Sequence record: NC_070987.1
Direction: 5' to 3' (one strand)
Source: Escherichia phage MN05
DNA length: 64,000 nt
The notes beneath the pieces are model-generated. The model was not told the DNA's origin, ran no database searches, and worked only from the letters and a program-made list of their open reading frames with translations. Each line of letters begins with the position of its first letter. The first letter of the stretch is position 1. The position numbers and the translations under genes were made by a program. Below, one piece after another: positions 42,119-60,798 of the stretch.

Positions 42119-42925
42119 TTATGCTACCTGAAGGAGTTTGATCTGCTGGTCCGCTTCTTTAACGTTGTTACCGTTAATGATTTCATGAAGCTTCTCAATT
42201 GGAAGGCGAGAGTGCAATGCCATCAGAGTGGACATGTCACACTGCTGAACAACCTTGTCAACCTGATCGTAAACAAACTTACGATTTTCACGATCACTAA
42301 TCCAGAAGTTAGACAGCGAACGATATTCGATACCGTAGTCCTTATAACGGATTGCAGACGCTTTGCCATAAAGCTCTTTACGGCGAGTATCTTTGTCCAT
42401 AATTACTGCTGGGAGAGACAGGAAATAGTCACACAGCACACCAAGCATCATCTGAGTTTGCAGAGTGATATCCAAAGCACCAACCACTCCAAGATGTACG
42501 TGACCACCGGCAGTACGAAGCCCTTTATTCTGAGAAGTCGGGGATGGGTTCTTCTGACCAGTGAAAGCGTTGAAATCAGGAGTACATCCGAAGATGAACG
42601 CTGATTCGTTGAAAGTCTTCATCTCTTCTTCAGTGAAGATATGAGAGCTAACACCCGGAGCTGTTTCCATGTCCAGTTTGTTCAGGACATTATTGGTAAG
42701 ATCAATACCACGTTGCATGTTATCGTTAAACGCTTCAAAACCGCTCTGTGGGTCAATATCAAACTCAGCCAGTACATTGTCCTCTTGAAGACGAACATCC
42801 TTAGCCAGAGTGATCTTATCGTCCTTAGAACAACCTAACAGACCAGCCACAGAGGTGATGATGCCATTGCTGGTACGAACGAACATCTCGGGATCGCTCC
42901 CAATAAGGAATTTGCGCTTAGTCAT
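42119..42925 (-). CDS. Hypothetical protein; possible second amidoligase-like enzyme
   Basis: N-terminal FLIGSDPE and later GGHVHLG loosely echo the motifs of 40392..41495. Confidence 0.4.
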   Translation of the reverse strand: MTKRKFLIGSDPEMFVRTSNGIITSVAGLLGCSKDDKITLAKDVRLQEDNVLAEFDIDPQSGFEAFNDNMQRGIDLTNNVLNKLDMETAPGVSSHIFTEEEMKTFNESAFIFGCTPDFNAFTGQKNPSPTSQNKGLRTAGGHVHLGVVGALDITLQTQMMLGVLCDYFLSLPAVIMDKDTRRKELYGKASAIRYKDYGIEYRSLSNFWISDRENRKFVYDQVDKVVQQCDMSTLMALHSRLPIEKLHEIINGNNVKEADQQIKLLQVA

Positions 42926-48791: not shown

Positions 48792-48911
48792 CTATGAATG
48801 AAATCCAATCCCCTACACTCCACTTTGTAGTATCCCCTTTAGGGGATTCTCGGAGAGTGTACATTCCATTTCGAAAAAGCATTCGTTTAAGTTTCACTTA
48901 AGTTAAACTCC

Positions 48912-49133
48912 TTAGTAAACTAAACCTACAACCTTTGCATTAGCTTGAGGGGTGACTTCAGCGGCTGGACGAAATCCGTCAACAACACCGTTGCAGATGT
49001 TGATGCAAGTGATATACCCTCCAACCTCTTGGTCGCCTTTAATCCAAAAACCATCTCTATGTCTAAAAGCACTTCCGCTTAGGAGTGTAGACAGAGGAAC
49101 TACTGGGAGTGTTTGCTTAGCTTCAACCAACAT
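48912..49133 (-). CDS. Small protein, family A
   Basis: SGSAFRHRDGFWIKG...NICNG. Confidence 0.45.
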   Translation of the reverse strand: MLVEAKQTLPVVPLSTLLSGSAFRHRDGFWIKGDQEVGGYITCINICNGVVDGFRPAAEVTPQANAKVVGLVY

Positions 49134-49140
49134 AATAACC

Positions 49141-49395
49141 TCAATTATCGTAGCATGTATTCCAATACATGTAGTTAATGTACGTTCTCGGTTTGATTCC
49201 GTACATGATGAAGTGAGTCTTCTTAATCCTTTCCTTCAGTGTGTAGTAAAGGCCATCGCTGAAGTTACCAATCTTTACTTGGAAGCGTAAAGAGCGAGCA
49301 TCCATTCGAAGCATAGAGATTAGCTGTACCCTACTACCCCCAGCCATCTCTTCCAGAAGCTTCTTTGTATTCCAATAATGAGCTGTCATACTCAC
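49141..49395 (-). CDS. Hypothetical protein
   Basis: Track ORF. Confidence 0.4.
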   Translation of the reverse strand: MSMTAHYWNTKKLLEEMAGGSRVQLISMLRMDARSLRFQVKIGNFSDGLYYTLKERIKKTHFIMYGIKPRTYINYMYWNTCYDN

Positions 49396-49396
49396 C

Positions 49397-49558
49397 TCAG
49401 CGTAGTAAGGTTACGGATGAAAGTTTACCTGTTGCACAGAGAATAACCTCTTTTACAGGGTATTCGTTTCCTGAAAGATCTTCAATATAGACAATAGCTT
49501 CTGGACCACAGTCAACAGATAGATTTTCAAGAGTTCTGATGAGTTCTTCAATAGTCAT
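49397..49558 (-). CDS. Hypothetical small protein (53 aa)
   Basis: ATG 1 nt after the upstream stop; ends 1 nt before the next start. Confidence 0.35.
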   Translation of the reverse strand: MTIEELIRTLENLSVDCGPEAIVYIEDLSGNEYPVKEVILCATGKLSSVTLLR

Positions 49559-49559
49559 A

Positions 49560-49859
49560 TCACCACTCCTTACCGGTTGTTGTTACAGAGCCACCACACC
49601 ACAACGCTGTATCAATCACAACATTGTCTGGAGTAGATTTCTCTTCGTTGATAGAAGGGTTAGCGTTAGAGCAGGTTGCTCCGTTCCAGCGCATATCAAT
49701 TTCACCAGAAGGAATCTTCTCACCTTTATGCCAGCGAGAAACACAAACACCTTCCACTGCTACTGCACACCACCCATCAGGACGGCTCTGTACGCAGCCT
49801 GTAATGGCCACACAGACAAGGAAGATACAGATTAAGGATATTACACCACCCCAACTCAT
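49560..49859 (-). CDS. Predicted lipoprotein
   Basis: Signal peptide with lipobox-like AITGC. Confidence 0.45.
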   Translation of the reverse strand: MSWGGVISLICIFLVCVAITGCVQSRPDGWCAVAVEGVCVSRWHKGEKIPSGEIDMRWNGATCSNANPSINEEKSTPDNVVIDTALWCGGSVTTTGKEW

Positions 49860-49878
49860 AACTATCTCCTACGTTGAT

Positions 49879-49954
49879 TGGTGCACCCTACAGGACTCGA
49901 ACCTGTAACCAACGACTTAGAAGGTCGCTGCTCTGTCCATTGAGCTAAGGGTGC
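49879..49954 (-). tRNA. tRNA-Arg (anticodon TCT), CCA encoded
   Basis: 76-nt cloverleaf folded by hand: 7-bp acceptor stem, D-arm GCTC/GAGC, anticodon loop CTTCTAA, T-arm ACAGG-TTCGAGT-CCTGT, 3' ACCA. Confidence 0.85.
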
Positions 49955-51519: not shown

Positions 51520-51596
51520 ATAAGCACCTCTTGTTAGTTTAAGTAAGAGTTGTCCCTTAATTAAAACAACAAAGGCCGCCCGAAGGCAGCCTCTCT

Positions 51597-53857: not shown

Positions 53858-53885
53858 ATAAAAAAGCCCCAGCCGTAGCCGGGGC
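53858..53885 (-). terminator. Rho-independent terminator (minus strand), first of a tandem pair
   Basis: GCCCCGGC-TACG-GCTGGGGC hairpin (one mismatch) followed by TTTTTT on the minus strand. Confidence 0.55.
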
Positions 53886-55410: not shown

Positions 55411-55455
55411 AAAAGAAAAGGCGCTACCCATTAAGATAGCGCCTTATGTTTATTT
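55411..55455. terminator. Bidirectional rho-independent terminator
   Basis: GGCGCTA...TAGCGCC 7-bp stem flanked by A-run and T-run; lies just after the stop of 55468..56367. Confidence 0.5.
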
Positions 55456-55467
55456 AAATTGTCTTAC

Positions 55468-56367
55468 TTATGCTGCCTGACGTGCTGCCATAATCTCGGC
55501 TGCCTTACGCAATACTTCTTCTTCTTCTGCCGCCGCTTTCTCATTGGCCTTAATAGTAGTGGCAGTTTCGATACGTTGGCGCAGGTTATTCAGCTTGTCC
55601 TGCATCACACTGACCACTTTTTCCATTTCATCAGCGTATGAATCGAGTGATTCCAATTCCTTGCTTGATGCGTTCATCAGATAATCGTCTGAGATCGCTA
55701 CCGTTGAAGCCGTGACTTTCTTGATGAGTGAATCAAAGGACTTTTTAACCTTGCCGACTTCTTCACTTAAGGCAATAGTGTTGTCACTGGTAGCGCCGTT
55801 GCGCTCATCAGCCAACAATTTGGCTTCAATACGGATTGCATTCAAGCGTTCAACTAAAGCGTAAATATCCTGATTAAAATCTTCCTTGTTTTTCGCCGGG
55901 ATTTGAAGGTGGGCCGCCACGTTGTCATTGCAACCCTTGTAGAAGTTAGGGTTATCGACTTCAATTTCACGACCTAACGCGAAGTTTTCGAAAGCGTTTG
56001 ACCAGCGGGCACGATTCTGTTCCATTTTGGTTTTAATTTGCGCTTCTTTCGCATCTTCTTTCGCTTTCGCTTCACCTTCCAGATTAATCCACTTCTTACG
56101 ACCATTTGCCGCATCGGTGTTAAACTTGATAGGGGTTAAGAAAGTAATTGCAGTGGCAATCACATCCATATCGCGGAAACGTTCGGTTAACAGAAAATCA
56201 ACCGCCGACTGCAATACATCTAACTTCTTGCCGTTGCTACGGAAGTGCTGCAAGTGCCCTAACAGAAAATTAGATACATCTTGTTTGATCGCCGCGTTAT
56301 TGCTACGGATGTTGTTAGCCAGTGCGTTAAAACCAGATTCTTTTACCAGATTAAAAATTTTAGCCAT
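55468..56367 (-). CDS. Hypothetical early protein (300 aa, helical / coiled-coil)
   Basis: Track ORF (GTG start) trimmed to ATG 56367 with SD AAGGTG. Confidence 0.5.
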   Translation of the reverse strand: MAKIFNLVKESGFNALANNIRSNNAAIKQDVSNFLLGHLQHFRSNGKKLDVLQSAVDFLLTERFRDMDVIATAITFLTPIKFNTDAANGRKKWINLEGEAKAKEDAKEAQIKTKMEQNRARWSNAFENFALGREIEVDNPNFYKGCNDNVAAHLQIPAKNKEDFNQDIYALVERLNAIRIEAKLLADERNGATSDNTIALSEEVGKVKKSFDSLIKKVTASTVAISDDYLMNASSKELESLDSYADEMEKVVSVMQDKLNNLRQRIETATTIKANEKAAAEEEEVLRKAAEIMAARQAA

Positions 56368-57189
56368 GATATTCACCTTTCAATTGTAAGGGCACTATTG
56401 CCCCGCTCGCTATGAGCCTTTAAGTCGCCATTGACTTATCAATATCCACTCAATGTTAAGTAAATATTGATAAGCGGAGCGGTCTTATCAGGAGTTAACC
56501 TTGCCGCTCCCTTATCCGTGATGTTTCATCTGGTATCTTTAATTAGTCGCTATAAACAAAGCCGACCTGATAGCGATGATCAATCATCACAATAAGGCTA
56601 TGCGTCCGATTCTATTTAATTACATTGATGTAACCATCGGCAATATCGTTTACTTTGCTTTCGCTCCCGCCTATCCTTTTGTATTAGCTCTTTATCGCTA
56701 GTCATCGCCCACTACGGGATACTGTTGCGAAAAAGTCACTAACCGCCTAATATTCCGGCGTTTTATATCTTTCGGCAGGTTTACTACATAACCCGACTAT
56801 GTACTTCCGTCATAAGACGAATATCAAGCCGTTCACATCGTAAACGTTCGCATTAAACCTTATTGTTAAATAGCAATTTGCCACTGTTTAACCATTCCCC
56901 GCCGCTCTCAATTGAGCGTTAATTCGTCGGACTTGCCTACCCTGATTAGCTTCTCTCATTGTAGCACCTTGTTAGCGATGGCCGCCGCTACCCTTAACCG
57001 TGGGCGATTAGCTTAAACCGTTGCGTGTACTCAATGAATCCGCTTATCAGTGGTGACGTTTCCAGTTAAGGGAATGTAAAACTGTTTACCCTGATAATTT
57101 AGGGAGTTTTACGCCGTTTTATCTGGTATGCTTTCCGATGGTTATTATCTTCCAGCATATGCAACCGATATAGGGGAATGTTTAAATTG

Positions 57190-58234
57190 TTAAAGAGCGG
57201 TAAATCTATCAAACGTGCTTTCTCACGTTATGCAACTGTTAGCCGTTGTTACGCTTTTCACTGAAGCGGTGTTTTGCTTGAGTGTGCTCATTATGGACCA
57301 TGATGTTTTCGCCGTCAACCGCTTTTTTAATCTTTTTCGTCGTTCCCACTATTGGGAGGATATATCAACCAGCTTTGTTTGATTGAAGATCAAGCGATAA
57401 GGCTTAACTCATGATTCACATTGTTAAAGAGCGTTTAGCCTTTTATAGTGTCTGCTAATCACTGCATCATTAAAGGCTTACTTATTCATTAACGGGGCGC
57501 CTAATCCCGAACTGCCCGCTGCACTATGTGCCACCTTTCCCGCGATACGTTGATTTGGGAACTAGTTAACGTTGTTTTGTTAACTTGTGGTTAGTATGAA
57601 CTACCTTAACCACGTTTGCAACCTCTTTTTTATCATCTTCTTTTATTCTTTTCCCTTATCTCGCGTGACTCTATGCGAAAGGGCAAGATGATAAGTCTGA
57701 TTTGTCTTTTAGGAATCTAGTACGCTTTCAAGCATTAATCTTTTGAAAGTATCGAACAAATAAGGCTTATTGATATTGCTTATTGTCCGCCTGCGTCACG
57801 TATGAATCAGGAATCAATTCTACCGATTAACTGGGCGCCTTATAGTAATGACGTCGCCGCCACCCGTAAGACAAATCATATTTTTAAAGAGCGTGCGGCT
57901 CACATAACACCGCTTGATAGTCAGTTAACCTATGACTATTCAGGGGCATGGTATCCGTCTGCCTACGTCTGACTTGCTTCACTCACTAGGGAGTTACTTG
58001 AGCGGTCATCTTGTCTTTCTAAGCTCATTATAGGTTAGGCTTTCCAGTTGTCAAATACTTTTTCAAGTATTTTTTCACTTTCCAGCCTGATTTTTAAAGA
58101 GCGGGGCAAGTTTCCTTGCCTTGTATGTTTTACATCGTACCCGATGAAAACCAGTATACGCCATCTTTCACGGAGCGCAATAGGGCAAAGCAAAATATTT
58201 TAAACTTTTTCACTATAGGGAAGATAAAAGAGCG
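57190..58234. repeat. Dispersed direct repeats of TTAAAGAGCG (four exact copies and one degenerate) in an ORF-free region
   Basis: Copies at 57190, 57424, 57884 and 58094, plus AAAAGAGCG at 58226; each preceded by AT-rich ATT(G/T)T. Confidence 0.5.
57290..57318 (-). promoter_or_regulatory. Sigma70-like promoter candidate (minus strand)
   Basis: TTGACG-N17-CATAAT with an upstream A-tract; no ORF of 60 aa or more for about 900 nt downstream. Confidence 0.35.
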
Positions 58235-58655
58235 GGCGAACGTGTTACACCGTAGGAAAAGGCTCGTAAGGCAACAATAGGCGGCCTAAAACGCACCGTA
58301 GCGAGCTAAAAGGGAGTAGGGAATACAATCACCTTAGAAAAGAAAAAAGCCTCATGGCGAGGCTTTCAGGGAGGTTTTAAAGCATTAAGTAAATTATGGC
58401 CATAGGCATGACTACGGCACAATAAAGGAGAAAGATCAGTCCTATGGATTTAAACATTACCCACAGCCGATAGCAGAACACCTAACAGAAGAATGACCAG
58501 AAAGAAGCCTACAACCGTTTTAACGACGAATCTAATAAACCACATAGCAATAAACCTTCTTAATTAAAGGATGTAAGAATAAAGCATATCAGCGACGAAT
58601 AGCGCCACTGTAACAACGAACAAGCAACGCCAAAGATAATCACAAATCATTTTTA

Positions 58656-58907
58656 TCACCATTTTGGCAGATCACAATCCAGAAGACCAGCAAGCGACAA
58701 ATCACCGTCAACATATATCGAACGAAAATCATCGCGATTTATATCAATGCGCACCAATTGGAGCCATCTTTTGGCCTCGCTAAAACTCATGGAACAAAAG
58801 GCAACGGTAGGCAGTATTACGTCACCTTCTTTCAAGCCGAACGCAATAAAAGTATCACAAACAAAACAAGAAACACCGCTAGATAATTTGATCACTTTGT
58901 TACTCAT
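58656..58907 (-). CDS. Hypothetical protein
   Basis: Track ORF. Confidence 0.4.
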   Translation of the reverse strand: MSNKVIKLSSGVSCFVCDTFIAFGLKEGDVILPTVAFCSMSFSEAKRWLQLVRIDINRDDFRSIYVDGDLSLAGLLDCDLPKW

Positions 58908-60171: not shown

Positions 60172-60369
60172 GGTTGGAACACGGAAGAAGGTGTAAAGGC
60201 ATTGCCAATAACCATTTTTTATTTGAGGACTCCCCCTTTTTGAGAAACACGCGGCGAGCGGCTAGCCCCACTCGGTCAAATCAGAATTTTAAACAGATAT
60301 ATACATCTTTATTTTTTTTATAAATCTGTATTTTAAACTCTTATATATATAAGCTTAAGAGAGGACTTA

Positions 60370-60531
60370 ATGAATCTAATTAAAGTATTTAGACGGATGA
60401 AGTGTAAGCACAATTACTATCTTCTTCGTAAAGCTTACGGGGATGAAAGAATACATGGTCTCTACCTATCAACATGGAGATGTAGGGAATGTGGTAAGTT
60501 GAGATTCAGTACGTGGGTGGATAGGCCTTAA
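60370..60531 (+). CDS. Small zinc-ribbon protein (53 aa, below the track cutoff)
   Basis: SD AGAGAGGA; C.H...CxxC; first gene of the plus-strand block. Confidence 0.4.
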   Translation: MNLIKVFRRMKCKHNYYLLRKAYGDERIHGLYLSTWRCRECGKLRFSTWVDRP

Positions 60532-60798
60532 CATGACATGGCCTTTATGAAGCCCCCTTTAAACCCCTTCCCTTTATCAGCGATCACGGGTTGTTGGTAT
60601 GAGGGTGCCTTTACGGGTAGGTCTTATGATGTGCCCTTTATACTTTTATTCAGAGGATAAGAATATGAGGTTTTTAAAAGAACTACACTCCTTGATTTAT
60701 AAGGACATAGTGTACTCAGTATCCCGCAATGCATGGTTCTACCAAAAAGGTGGCAACGGTGAATGGGTAGATTGAATCTTATTCAGAGGAGATGAATT

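Follow-up and report, generated by a model that had tools for sequence, protein, structure and literature searches.

The 64,000-nucleotide (nt) stretch of Escherichia phage MN05 analysed here (NC_070987.1; hereafter the window), which its sequence assigns to the phiEco32-like coliphages (Kuravirus, Gordonclarkvirinae), contains at positions 56368-58655 what we read, with a probability of about 0.7, as an early control region, in which rrn-style, Nus-modified host RNA polymerase would transcribe a large structured early RNA. The reading is built on a four-fold repeat identified as boxA, on a conserved sigma70 promoter upstream of each copy, and on some 820 nt of covarying RNA structure lying between the last boxA and the homologue of gene 124.

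The first-pass annotation had singled out this region for having no open reading frame (ORF) of 60 amino acids (aa) or more. This was borne out, the longest ORF inside it being 56 aa (57802..57972, +). The ORF-free gap at 56390-58655 (2266 base pairs, bp) is the largest of the window, followed by one of 511 bp (60272-60782) located just past the switch in gene orientation and GC skew at about 59.8-60.0 kb. A 60-aa ORF was also missing in approximately 6% of 2000 composition-matched shuffles of the region. Both flanking genes are on the minus strand and the region is read from right to left. In BLAST searches, 96-98 phage records matched it at 87-92% identity over most of its length, nearly all of them Escherichia and Shigella phages of the phiEco32 group (Kuravirus, Suseptimavirus and Nieuwekanaalvirus, subfamily Gordonclarkvirinae). 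In these relatives, the approximately 2 kb between the homologues of phi32_124 and phi32_125 are either unannotated (phiEco32, SU10, EP335 and others) or filled with tiny ad hoc ORFs. The only statement on the region in the literature searched is found in the SU10 genome paper, which placed three sigma70 promoters in this "spacer". For the comparisons described below, the homologous region of 21 further phages was added to that of the window, giving a set of 22 sequences.

The repeated motif is boxA, read on the minus strand

The four exact copies of TTAAAGAGCG listed in the first-pass annotation are present as placed, at 57190, 57424, 57884 and 58094 (+), against an expectation of 0.13, and four copies were reached in 0 of 100 shuffles. 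The strand had to be corrected, however, as the motif is meaningful on the minus strand, where it reads CGCTCTTTAA(C/A)AAT (two copies of CGCTCTTTAACAAT and two of CGCTCTTTAAAAAT). Read in this direction, its sequence identifies it as boxA, the known NusB/NusE loading site of the E. coli rrn leaders, of lambda nut and of the T7 early leader, and not as an operator, the kind of element suggested before. All four copies fit exactly the gamma-proteobacterial BoxA consensus GYTCTTTAANA (Baniulyte et al., 2017). In the order of transcription, and as defined by consensus match and alignment, they are boxA-A (GCTCTTTAAAA, 58092-58102), boxA-B (GCTCTTTAAAA, 57882..57892), boxA-C (GCTCTTTAACA, 57422..57432) and boxA-D (GCTCTTTAACA, 57188-57198), all on the minus strand. 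The whole window holds six matches to the consensus (0.70 expected), of which these four cluster at 57188-58102 (-).

Alignment with related phages, proposed at first pass as a check on the repeats, confirmed that they are kept. Each of the 22 phages carries 3-5 boxA matches, and all 90 matches lie on the sense strand, with none on the antisense strand. Within boxA, variation is confined to the degenerate tenth position (0.53 bits); the search pattern itself dictates positions 1-9 and 11, whose conservation is better judged from the alignments. Beyond this pattern, conservation extends to C(-1), A(+12) and T(+13), which are shared with rrn boxA, and the other flanking positions are variable. 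The two promoter-distal copies are found at about 830 and 1065 nt from the ATG of gene 124 in nearly all 22 phages. Moreover, boxA-D shares 16 consecutive bases, GCTCTTTAACAATTTA, with the host rrn leader, whose sequence ...CACTGCTCTTTAACAATTTATCAG... occurs at 100% identity in 5426 out of 5426 complete E. coli genomes, at a median of seven places per genome. Among virulent phages, an early leader containing boxA has a precedent, since T7 carries a perfect CGCTCTTTAACAA directly downstream of the host promoters A1-A3 and ahead of its first gene (PMC11863960, Table 1). As for the phiEco32 group, no mention of boxA was found in the literature searched, which did not cover the 2008 and 2012 phiEco32 papers.

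Outside the four cassettes, a boxA-like variant without a promoter of its own (GCTCTTTTATC, 58223-58233, -) is located just past the terminator of the upstream operon; it is kept in most, not all, relatives and may represent a decayed cassette. An invariant boxA-like sequence with a C4-to-A change (GCTATTTAACAA, 56863-56874, -) is found inside the large RNA in 22 out of 22 phages, where it partly overlaps an invariant 10-bp long-range helix. It is a candidate for either a degenerate boxA or a purely structural element.

Four tandem promoter-leader-boxA cassettes

Each boxA in the window sits 50-170 nt downstream of a conserved sigma70 promoter. Upstream of every copy, the hexamers and an A/T-rich upstream tract are conserved, and the spacer is constant in length and variable in sequence. 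Thus, the region contains four tandem promoter-leader-boxA cassettes, which agrees with the earlier suggestion of an early regulatory region with multiple promoters. The first promoter, P_A (58153..58211, -), comprises an invariant upstream tract (GAAAAAGTTTAAAATA, 58190-58211), a -35 hexamer TTGCGC (58175-58180), a 16-nt spacer and a -10 hexamer TATACT (58153-58158). In 10 phages its -10 and upstream tract are invariant and the TTGC of the -35 is kept while the spacer sequence varies (TTGCnn-16-TATACT). P_B (58027..58054, -), preceded by an A-rich tract, is a perfect promoter (TTGACA-16-TATAAT, 12/12) that the first-pass annotation had overlooked; it is conserved in 10 phages, appearing across relatives as TTGACA-16/17-TATAAT or TATAGT. 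P_C (57593..57621, -), recognised by its conservation pattern, has an A-rich upstream tract followed by TTGCAA-17-CATACT. Its counterparts have TTGACA or TTGCAA, then TAGAAT, TAAGCT or CATACT, most of them combining TTGACA with TAGAAT or TAAGCT. P_D (57290..57337, -) includes the one promoter noticed previously, TTGACG-N17-CATAAT at 57318..57290 (10/12), preceded by the tract AAAAAGATTAAAAAAG. The pattern AAAAAGATTAAAAAAG plus TTGAC(A/G)-17-CATAAT is present in 22 out of 22 phages, with TTGACA in most relatives and a varying spacer.

The leaders between promoter and boxA are heterogeneous, ranging from about 12-30 nt up to 50-170 nt. The P_A leader (58092..58146, -) forms two hairpins (58133-58146 and 58105-58120), the second of which (GGCAAG-GAAAC-TTGCC) abuts boxA-A. 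In the P_D leader (57188..57228, -), a hairpin ACGTG-AGAAAG-CACGT (57213-57228) is separated by 14 nt from boxA-D, and its core GTG-AGAAAG-CAC is lengthened by two further pairs, for which the 22-phage alignment shows five compensatory variants. In many phages, boxA-B and boxA-C are only 12-30 nt away from the predicted start and lack a consistent hairpin. Pairwise BLAST comparisons revealed that the cassettes have been shuffled, lost or expanded among phages, giving the region a mosaic appearance.

Two of the leaders house optional structured inserts. The B-insert, about 126 nt between P_B and boxA-B (57893..58020, -), was delimited by BLAST and by compensatory stems. It shows 78% identity (E 2e-20) to positions 1749-1886 of the Pseudomonas phage MR4 locus (Autographiviridae, Gajwadongvirus), where it likewise lies immediately upstream of a boxA, with a second MR4 boxA about 240 nt further on. 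The stems of the coliphage and MR4 copies differ by compensatory changes (e.g., GGCA/TGCC vs ACCG/CGGT). The insert is missing from ECBP2, KBNP1711, SkaterBoy, XT73 and 4E8, and a scan of IMG/VR for it returned NJ01 only. It looks like a horizontally mobile RNA module tied to boxA. The C-insert (about 160-180 nt between P_C and boxA-C; 57433..57592, -) is present in 7 of the 22 phages, and its alignment fold comprises 52 pairs, 8 of them compensatory, a weaker support than that obtained for the large RNA.

A large structured RNA precedes gene 124

Downstream of boxA-D, about 820 nt (56368..57187, -) extend as far as the gene-124 homologue with its Shine-Dalgarno sequence and ATG. The 820-830 nt from boxA-D to this start codon are collinear in 22 out of 22 phages, and their identity to the window (0.73-0.94) exceeds that at third codon positions of the adjacent gene (0.55-0.82); in Suseptimavirus-type phages the figures are 87-90% vs 55%. 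No 3-nt periodicity of substitutions was detected across 56368-57198.

The fold was predicted with RNAalifold on the 22-sequence alignment (A2), which provides 5010 pair cells, and was compared with controls in which the 3' partners were slid by 1-3 columns and with 500 column shuffles. It consists of 38 helices with 228 pairs in total. Of these pairs, 76 show one or more compensatory double changes (9-12 pairs in the slid controls), standard pairs occupied 98.9% of the cells (34-48% in the slid controls), and none of the 500 column shuffles matched the observed pairing values on any measure. The structure is also asymmetric between strands: G-U cells number 619 vs 22 A-C cells, the opposite-strand reading of the same helices pairs 87% of the cells, and the alignment fold energy is -232 kcal/mol for the sense strand vs -139 kcal/mol for the antisense strand. 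RNA secondary structure is therefore under selection on the sense strand, and the excess of G-U cells and the better sense fold point to an RNA transcribed in the same direction as the early genes rather than to a DNA element. The window sequence alone folds with a z-score of -7.7 relative to shuffles, and five metagenomic sequences from outside the derivation set keep 98.7-99.6% of the pairs. These results substantiate the non-coding RNA that was among the roles considered at first pass. The inverted repeat TGATAAG...CTTATCA noted then is indeed present at about 56468-56491, but its bases pair with other partners in the covariation-supported fold (helices 33-35).

The predicted architecture comprises a 5' domain (A2 columns 13-316, closed by columns 13-26/302-316), a central domain, which the invariant 10-bp long-range helix closes (columns 337-346/644-653), and a 3' part with several hairpins ending at the Shine-Dalgarno sequence. 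It also contains long invariant single-stranded stretches, including ACCAGAUAAAACG, ACCAGAUGAAACA, GCAAAUUGCUAUUUAACAAUAAGGUUU and GGCAAGGUUAAC, together with one GAAA tetraloop and an expansion segment that is variable and, in phage LAMP, substituted. By these features the RNA resembles complex functional RNAs more than ordinary leaders. The sequence ACCAGAU(A/G)AAAC occurs as two invariant copies in different domains (57115-57127 and 56522-56534, -), which makes it a candidate for a repeated binding site. A pairing between boxA-D and the gene-124 Shine-Dalgarno region (helix 1) was predicted as well; it is not claimed here, because all its columns are invariant and a pyrimidine-rich boxA is complementary to any Shine-Dalgarno sequence.

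Besides these sequences, a 19-codon ATG frame (MLEDNNHRKAYQIKRRKTP, 57158..57099, -) is intact in 22 out of 22 phages, the only ORF conserved in position across them in 56368-57198. It lacks a Shine-Dalgarno sequence, and where its first-codon positions vary, they do so as covarying base pairs, which suggests that it is probably structural and not translated.

Searches for known relatives of the RNA remained negative. The covariance-model search recommended at first pass yielded no Rfam 15 family at gathering threshold in the region, the sole match in the window being a tRNA-Arg, and at E values up to 10 the region gave chance-level matches far below the thresholds. E. coli genomes and plasmids showed no similarity to the region, and only close relatives from the same clade, plus one chance match, emerged from motif scans of IMG/VR and metagenomes and from distant-mode blastn.

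Gene 124 and the boundaries of the unit

The gene-124 homologue (55468..56367, -) encodes a 299-aa protein of phrog_13018 and is the only ORF of the unit. A terminator-like intrinsic hairpin with a 12-bp stem and a T-run lies directly 3' of it (55418..55445, -), at a position where a terminator is annotated in SU7 and 4E8. The large RNA (96-98 records) and gp124 (96 records) are found in essentially the same set of records. In view of this co-occurrence and of the terminator after the gene, promoters, RNA, gene 124 and terminator look like a single unit. When gp124 was checked as a partner, only sub-threshold, coiled-coil-like matches were obtained in Pfam and PDB, with a single-sequence AlphaFold model of pLDDT 49. 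A gp124-based search for related loci recovered five, four of them from already-known isolates. Further strong terminator-like hairpins occur in the early cluster at 53885..53866 and 51594..51571 (-); their location inside the cluster suggests either attenuation or a need for read-through.

At the opposite edge, the right-hand 290 bp or so (58377-58662, -) turned out not to be non-coding. A cluster of very small ORFs had been among the candidates of the first-pass annotation, and that proposal holds for this segment and not for the remainder of the region, where no periodicity and a single doubtful frame of 19 codons were found. The segment contains three short hydrophobic ORFs with coupled start and stop codons, which lack annotation in most related GenBank records. 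The start of the 32-aa ORF (MVIKMICDYLWRCLFVVTVALFVADMLYSYIL, 58564..58662, -) overlaps the stop of the 83-aa upstream gene (ATGGTGA), and its peptide ...FWRCLFVVTVALFVADMLYSYIL is kept in ECBP2, KBNP1711, SkaterBoy and phiEco32. The 31-aa ORF (58450..58545, -) corresponds to a truncated N-terminal transmembrane segment of phi32_125, with 87% identity to residues 1-31 of this protein (tblastn), which has 121 aa in phiEco32; the same truncation is seen in ECBP2. The 26-aa ORF (MFKSIGLIFLLYCAVVMPMAIIYLML, 58377..58457, -) is conserved in the five phages compared. An intrinsic terminator with a 10-bp stem and a T-run (58336..58367, -) ends this small early operon; it is conserved, with a compensatory stem in phage LAMP, and is annotated as a terminator in SU10, 4E8 and SU7.

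Elsewhere in the window, a tRNA/tmRNA scan detected only a tRNA-Arg (anticodon TCT; 49879-49954, -), the tRNA characteristic of this phage group. Implausible product names were noticed among the small early proteins of relatives, such as "terminase" for the 121-aa homologue of phi32_125, "polymerase" or "DNA polymerase B region" for a protein of about 85 aa, and "cathepsin L-like cysteine proteinase A" in NJ01. These look like propagated annotation errors.

A proposed role for the Nus factors and competing explanations

According to published work, including Baniulyte et al. (2017), BoxA RNA binds NusB/NusE, nucleates a complex with NusA, NusG and SuhB and blocks Rho-dependent termination, and at rRNA operons the Nus factors chiefly promote RNA folding. 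Rho quickly terminates long untranslated RNA, and boxA counters it at CRISPR arrays (Stringer et al., 2020). An antitermination device would be needed here as well, because the RNA is untranslated and thus exposed to Rho, and because terminator-like hairpins follow downstream. From the sequence features described above, we infer that the region is transcribed, that it binds Nus factors, and that these provide antitermination or folding assistance. Host RNA polymerase would start at the four sigma70 promoters located behind the terminator of the small operon, and the nascent boxA RNA (CGCTCTTTAANAAT) would recruit NusB/NusE(S10) with NusA, NusG and SuhB. The polymerase would thereby be converted to a Rho-resistant, fast-elongating complex of the rrn type that assists RNA folding, and would transcribe the untranslated structured RNA of about 0.8 kb (0.9-1.75 kb from the four promoters) and then gene 124. 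Every early transcript from the region would in this way gain a Nus-modified polymerase and yield a complete, correctly folded 0.8-kb RNA, perhaps with partial read-through into downstream early genes.

Several points weigh against this scheme. The window copies of the P_A and P_C hexamers match the sigma70 consensus at only 8 of 12 positions, and because of these weak matches both calls rest on the conservation pattern. No GU-rich, TGTGTGGG-like boxC was found on reading the sequence 10-40 nt downstream of each boxA, the hairpins beside boxA differ between cassettes, and the full boxB-boxA-boxC layout of rrn is not reproduced. The large RNA, G-rich and structured on its sense strand, may resist Rho unaided. 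Complexes of the rrn type act mainly on Rho-dependent terminators, so reading through the intrinsic terminator after gene 124 may require more than the Nus factors. The literature searched contains no transcript, 5'-end or Nus-binding data for these phages, and in the distantly related Salmonella phage 7-11 the early region lacks a boxA cluster, which indicates that the device is specific to this clade. Phage 7-11 is now classified in Grimontviridae, and its locus (40001-89916) has unannotated gaps at positions 42133-42845 and 48863-49916.

The role of the large RNA itself is a matter of more tentative proposals. It is quite possible, at somewhat less than even odds, that it has an early function of its own in infection, as a ribonucleoprotein scaffold or as a host-takeover or anti-defence device. 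A slightly less likely proposal is a cis-acting leader that controls the stability or translation of gene 124 and read-through into early genes, and other roles rank third. As tentative as the cis-acting leader is the proposal that the RNA represents a hitherto undescribed class encoded by Gordonclarkvirinae coliphages, in which a core of about 0.8 kb is combined with optional structured leader modules. The unit making it would mimic an rrn operon (promoters with upstream tracts, boxA and Nus-assisted folding), and the RNA would rank with the earliest products of infection and with those transcribed most strongly. It would act in trans, as a ribonucleoprotein, as a ribozyme, or in host takeover or anti-defence, perhaps with the co-inherited gp124, and its boxA copies might also drain NusB/S10 from host rrn operons.

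The same boxA elements could be accounted for by a lambda-type nut system, in which boxA, an adjacent boxB hairpin and a phage N-like protein allow reading through intrinsic and Rho-dependent terminators. Hairpins with A-rich or GNRA-like loops do stand beside two boxA copies (the covarying GTG-AGAAAG-CAC at boxA-D and GGCAAG-GAAAC-TTGCC at boxA-A), strong intrinsic terminators follow downstream, and many early proteins have no assigned function. However, these hairpins lie ahead of boxA, as in rrn, and not behind it as they do in lambda; their sequences and loops vary from one cassette to another, and at boxA-B and boxA-C they are inconsistent in many phages. No consistent hairpin was found after boxA, nor any N-like protein in the scan of flanking genes, which did not extend to the whole genome, and we regard this explanation as unlikely. 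It is also rather improbable that the primary role of the array is that of a decoy, four boxA copies on an abundant early RNA titrating NusB/S10 away from host rrn operons and thus contributing to host shut-off. Over-expressed boxA RNA competes for NusB, and each phage carries 3-5 copies behind strong promoters, but the placement of one boxA after each promoter suits the modification of each transcript in cis, and a decoy would not need such a layout. Both roles may nevertheless be compatible.

A replication origin or primer RNA, comparable to ColE1 RNA II or to the transcription-primed origins of T7, had been among the first-pass candidates and would suit the largest non-coding stretch of the window, rich in inverted repeats and promoters, in phages whose origin is undefined in the literature read. 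No specific support for it emerged, and we consider it very unlikely: the repeats are boxA and strictly strand-specific, the constraint falls on RNA pairing including G-U pairs (with few A-C cells), neither iterons nor an AT-rich unwinding element were seen in the region, and the skew does not switch there but at about 59.8 kb, where gene orientation flips. Finally, a set of many small conventional genes, or a decayed pseudogene or spacer, is scarcely credible. The three micro-ORFs at 58377-58662 look real, the frame at 57158..57099 is intact in all 22 phages, and some GenBank records annotate many tiny ORFs in the region. Nevertheless, 3-nt periodicity is lacking, no other ORF is conserved in position, and that frame has no ribosome-binding signal of the Shine-Dalgarno type. 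Coding is excluded for 56400-58340, the 19-codon frame apart, and a neutral spacer is excluded because conservation is far above that of synonymous sites.

Comparison with known systems

The closest parallel is the E. coli rrn leader (boxB-boxA-boxC; rrnTAC = NusA, NusB, NusE, NusG, SuhB and S4). The phage unit shares with it strong sigma70 promoters in tandem, each preceded by an A/T-rich tract, a boxA identical over 16 nt, a hairpin ahead of boxA (in two of the phage cassettes) and a long structured non-coding RNA downstream. In contrast, rrn has P1/P2 and one boxA where the phage has four cassettes, and in the phage unit no boxC was found, the RNA is unlike rRNA or any E. coli sequence, and a protein gene follows. 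Given the missing boxC and the heterogeneous hairpins, the unit is taken to work like an rrn leader without being filed as one. The T7 early region (A1-A3, boxA, RNase III sites) likewise belongs to a virulent phage that uses host polymerase for its early genes, from several strong promoters near the early-gene end of the genome. In T7, however, a single boxA serves three promoters and the leader is about 100 nt long, whereas the phage studied here has one boxA per promoter, followed by about 820 nt of conserved structure.

The boxA elements of CRISPR arrays and of the suhB leader (Stringer et al., 2020; Baniulyte et al., 2017) share with those of the phage the consensus and a long untranslated transcript shielded from Rho, but they are chromosomal and single-copy, and what follows them are repeats or mRNA, not a large folded RNA. 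Lambda nutL/nutR have in common with the phage cassettes a boxA on nascent early phage transcripts and, as proposed here, processive antitermination; lambda differs in needing boxB downstream of boxA and the N protein, and neither that layout nor that protein was found in the region and flanking genes analysed.

Regarding the RNA, the nearest counterparts are GOLLD and ROOL, large structured non-coding RNAs associated with phages and prophages. The phage RNA resembles them in its size class (0.6-0.8 kb), many covarying helices, invariant single-stranded stretches and phage context, and differs from them in having no Rfam 15 match, an E. coli host, early promoters equipped with boxA, and a fusion to an mRNA.

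Significance for the phiEco32 group

A boxA in a phage early leader is an established kind of element. What appears to be new is a tandem array with one boxA per promoter, coupled to a large conserved structured RNA in a virulent coliphage, an arrangement undescribed in Rfam or in the literature searched, which did not include the 2008 and 2012 phiEco32 papers. Among bacteria and phages, large non-coding RNAs with an intricate fold are a rarity, known mostly from organisms that are difficult to handle. The phages described here are common E. coli phages; the BASEL collection includes members of the group, which can be grown on K-12 once its O-antigen is restored, so genetic, probing and structural work is directly feasible. 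The annotation of about 100 GenBank records, blank or with spurious tiny ORFs at this locus, can now be corrected.

The unit also offers a candidate answer to the question of how early transcripts of the phiEco32 group cross long untranslated, terminator-containing stretches; for the related phage 7-11, according to the paper describing it, such a strategy "remains to be defined". Host Nus factors and boxA, known from rRNA and lambda-like phages, would also serve virulent phages, as cassettes present in several copies. Should Nus factors prove necessary, alleles of nusB, nusE or suhB would be host determinants for a widespread group of phages, which would be relevant to phage therapy.

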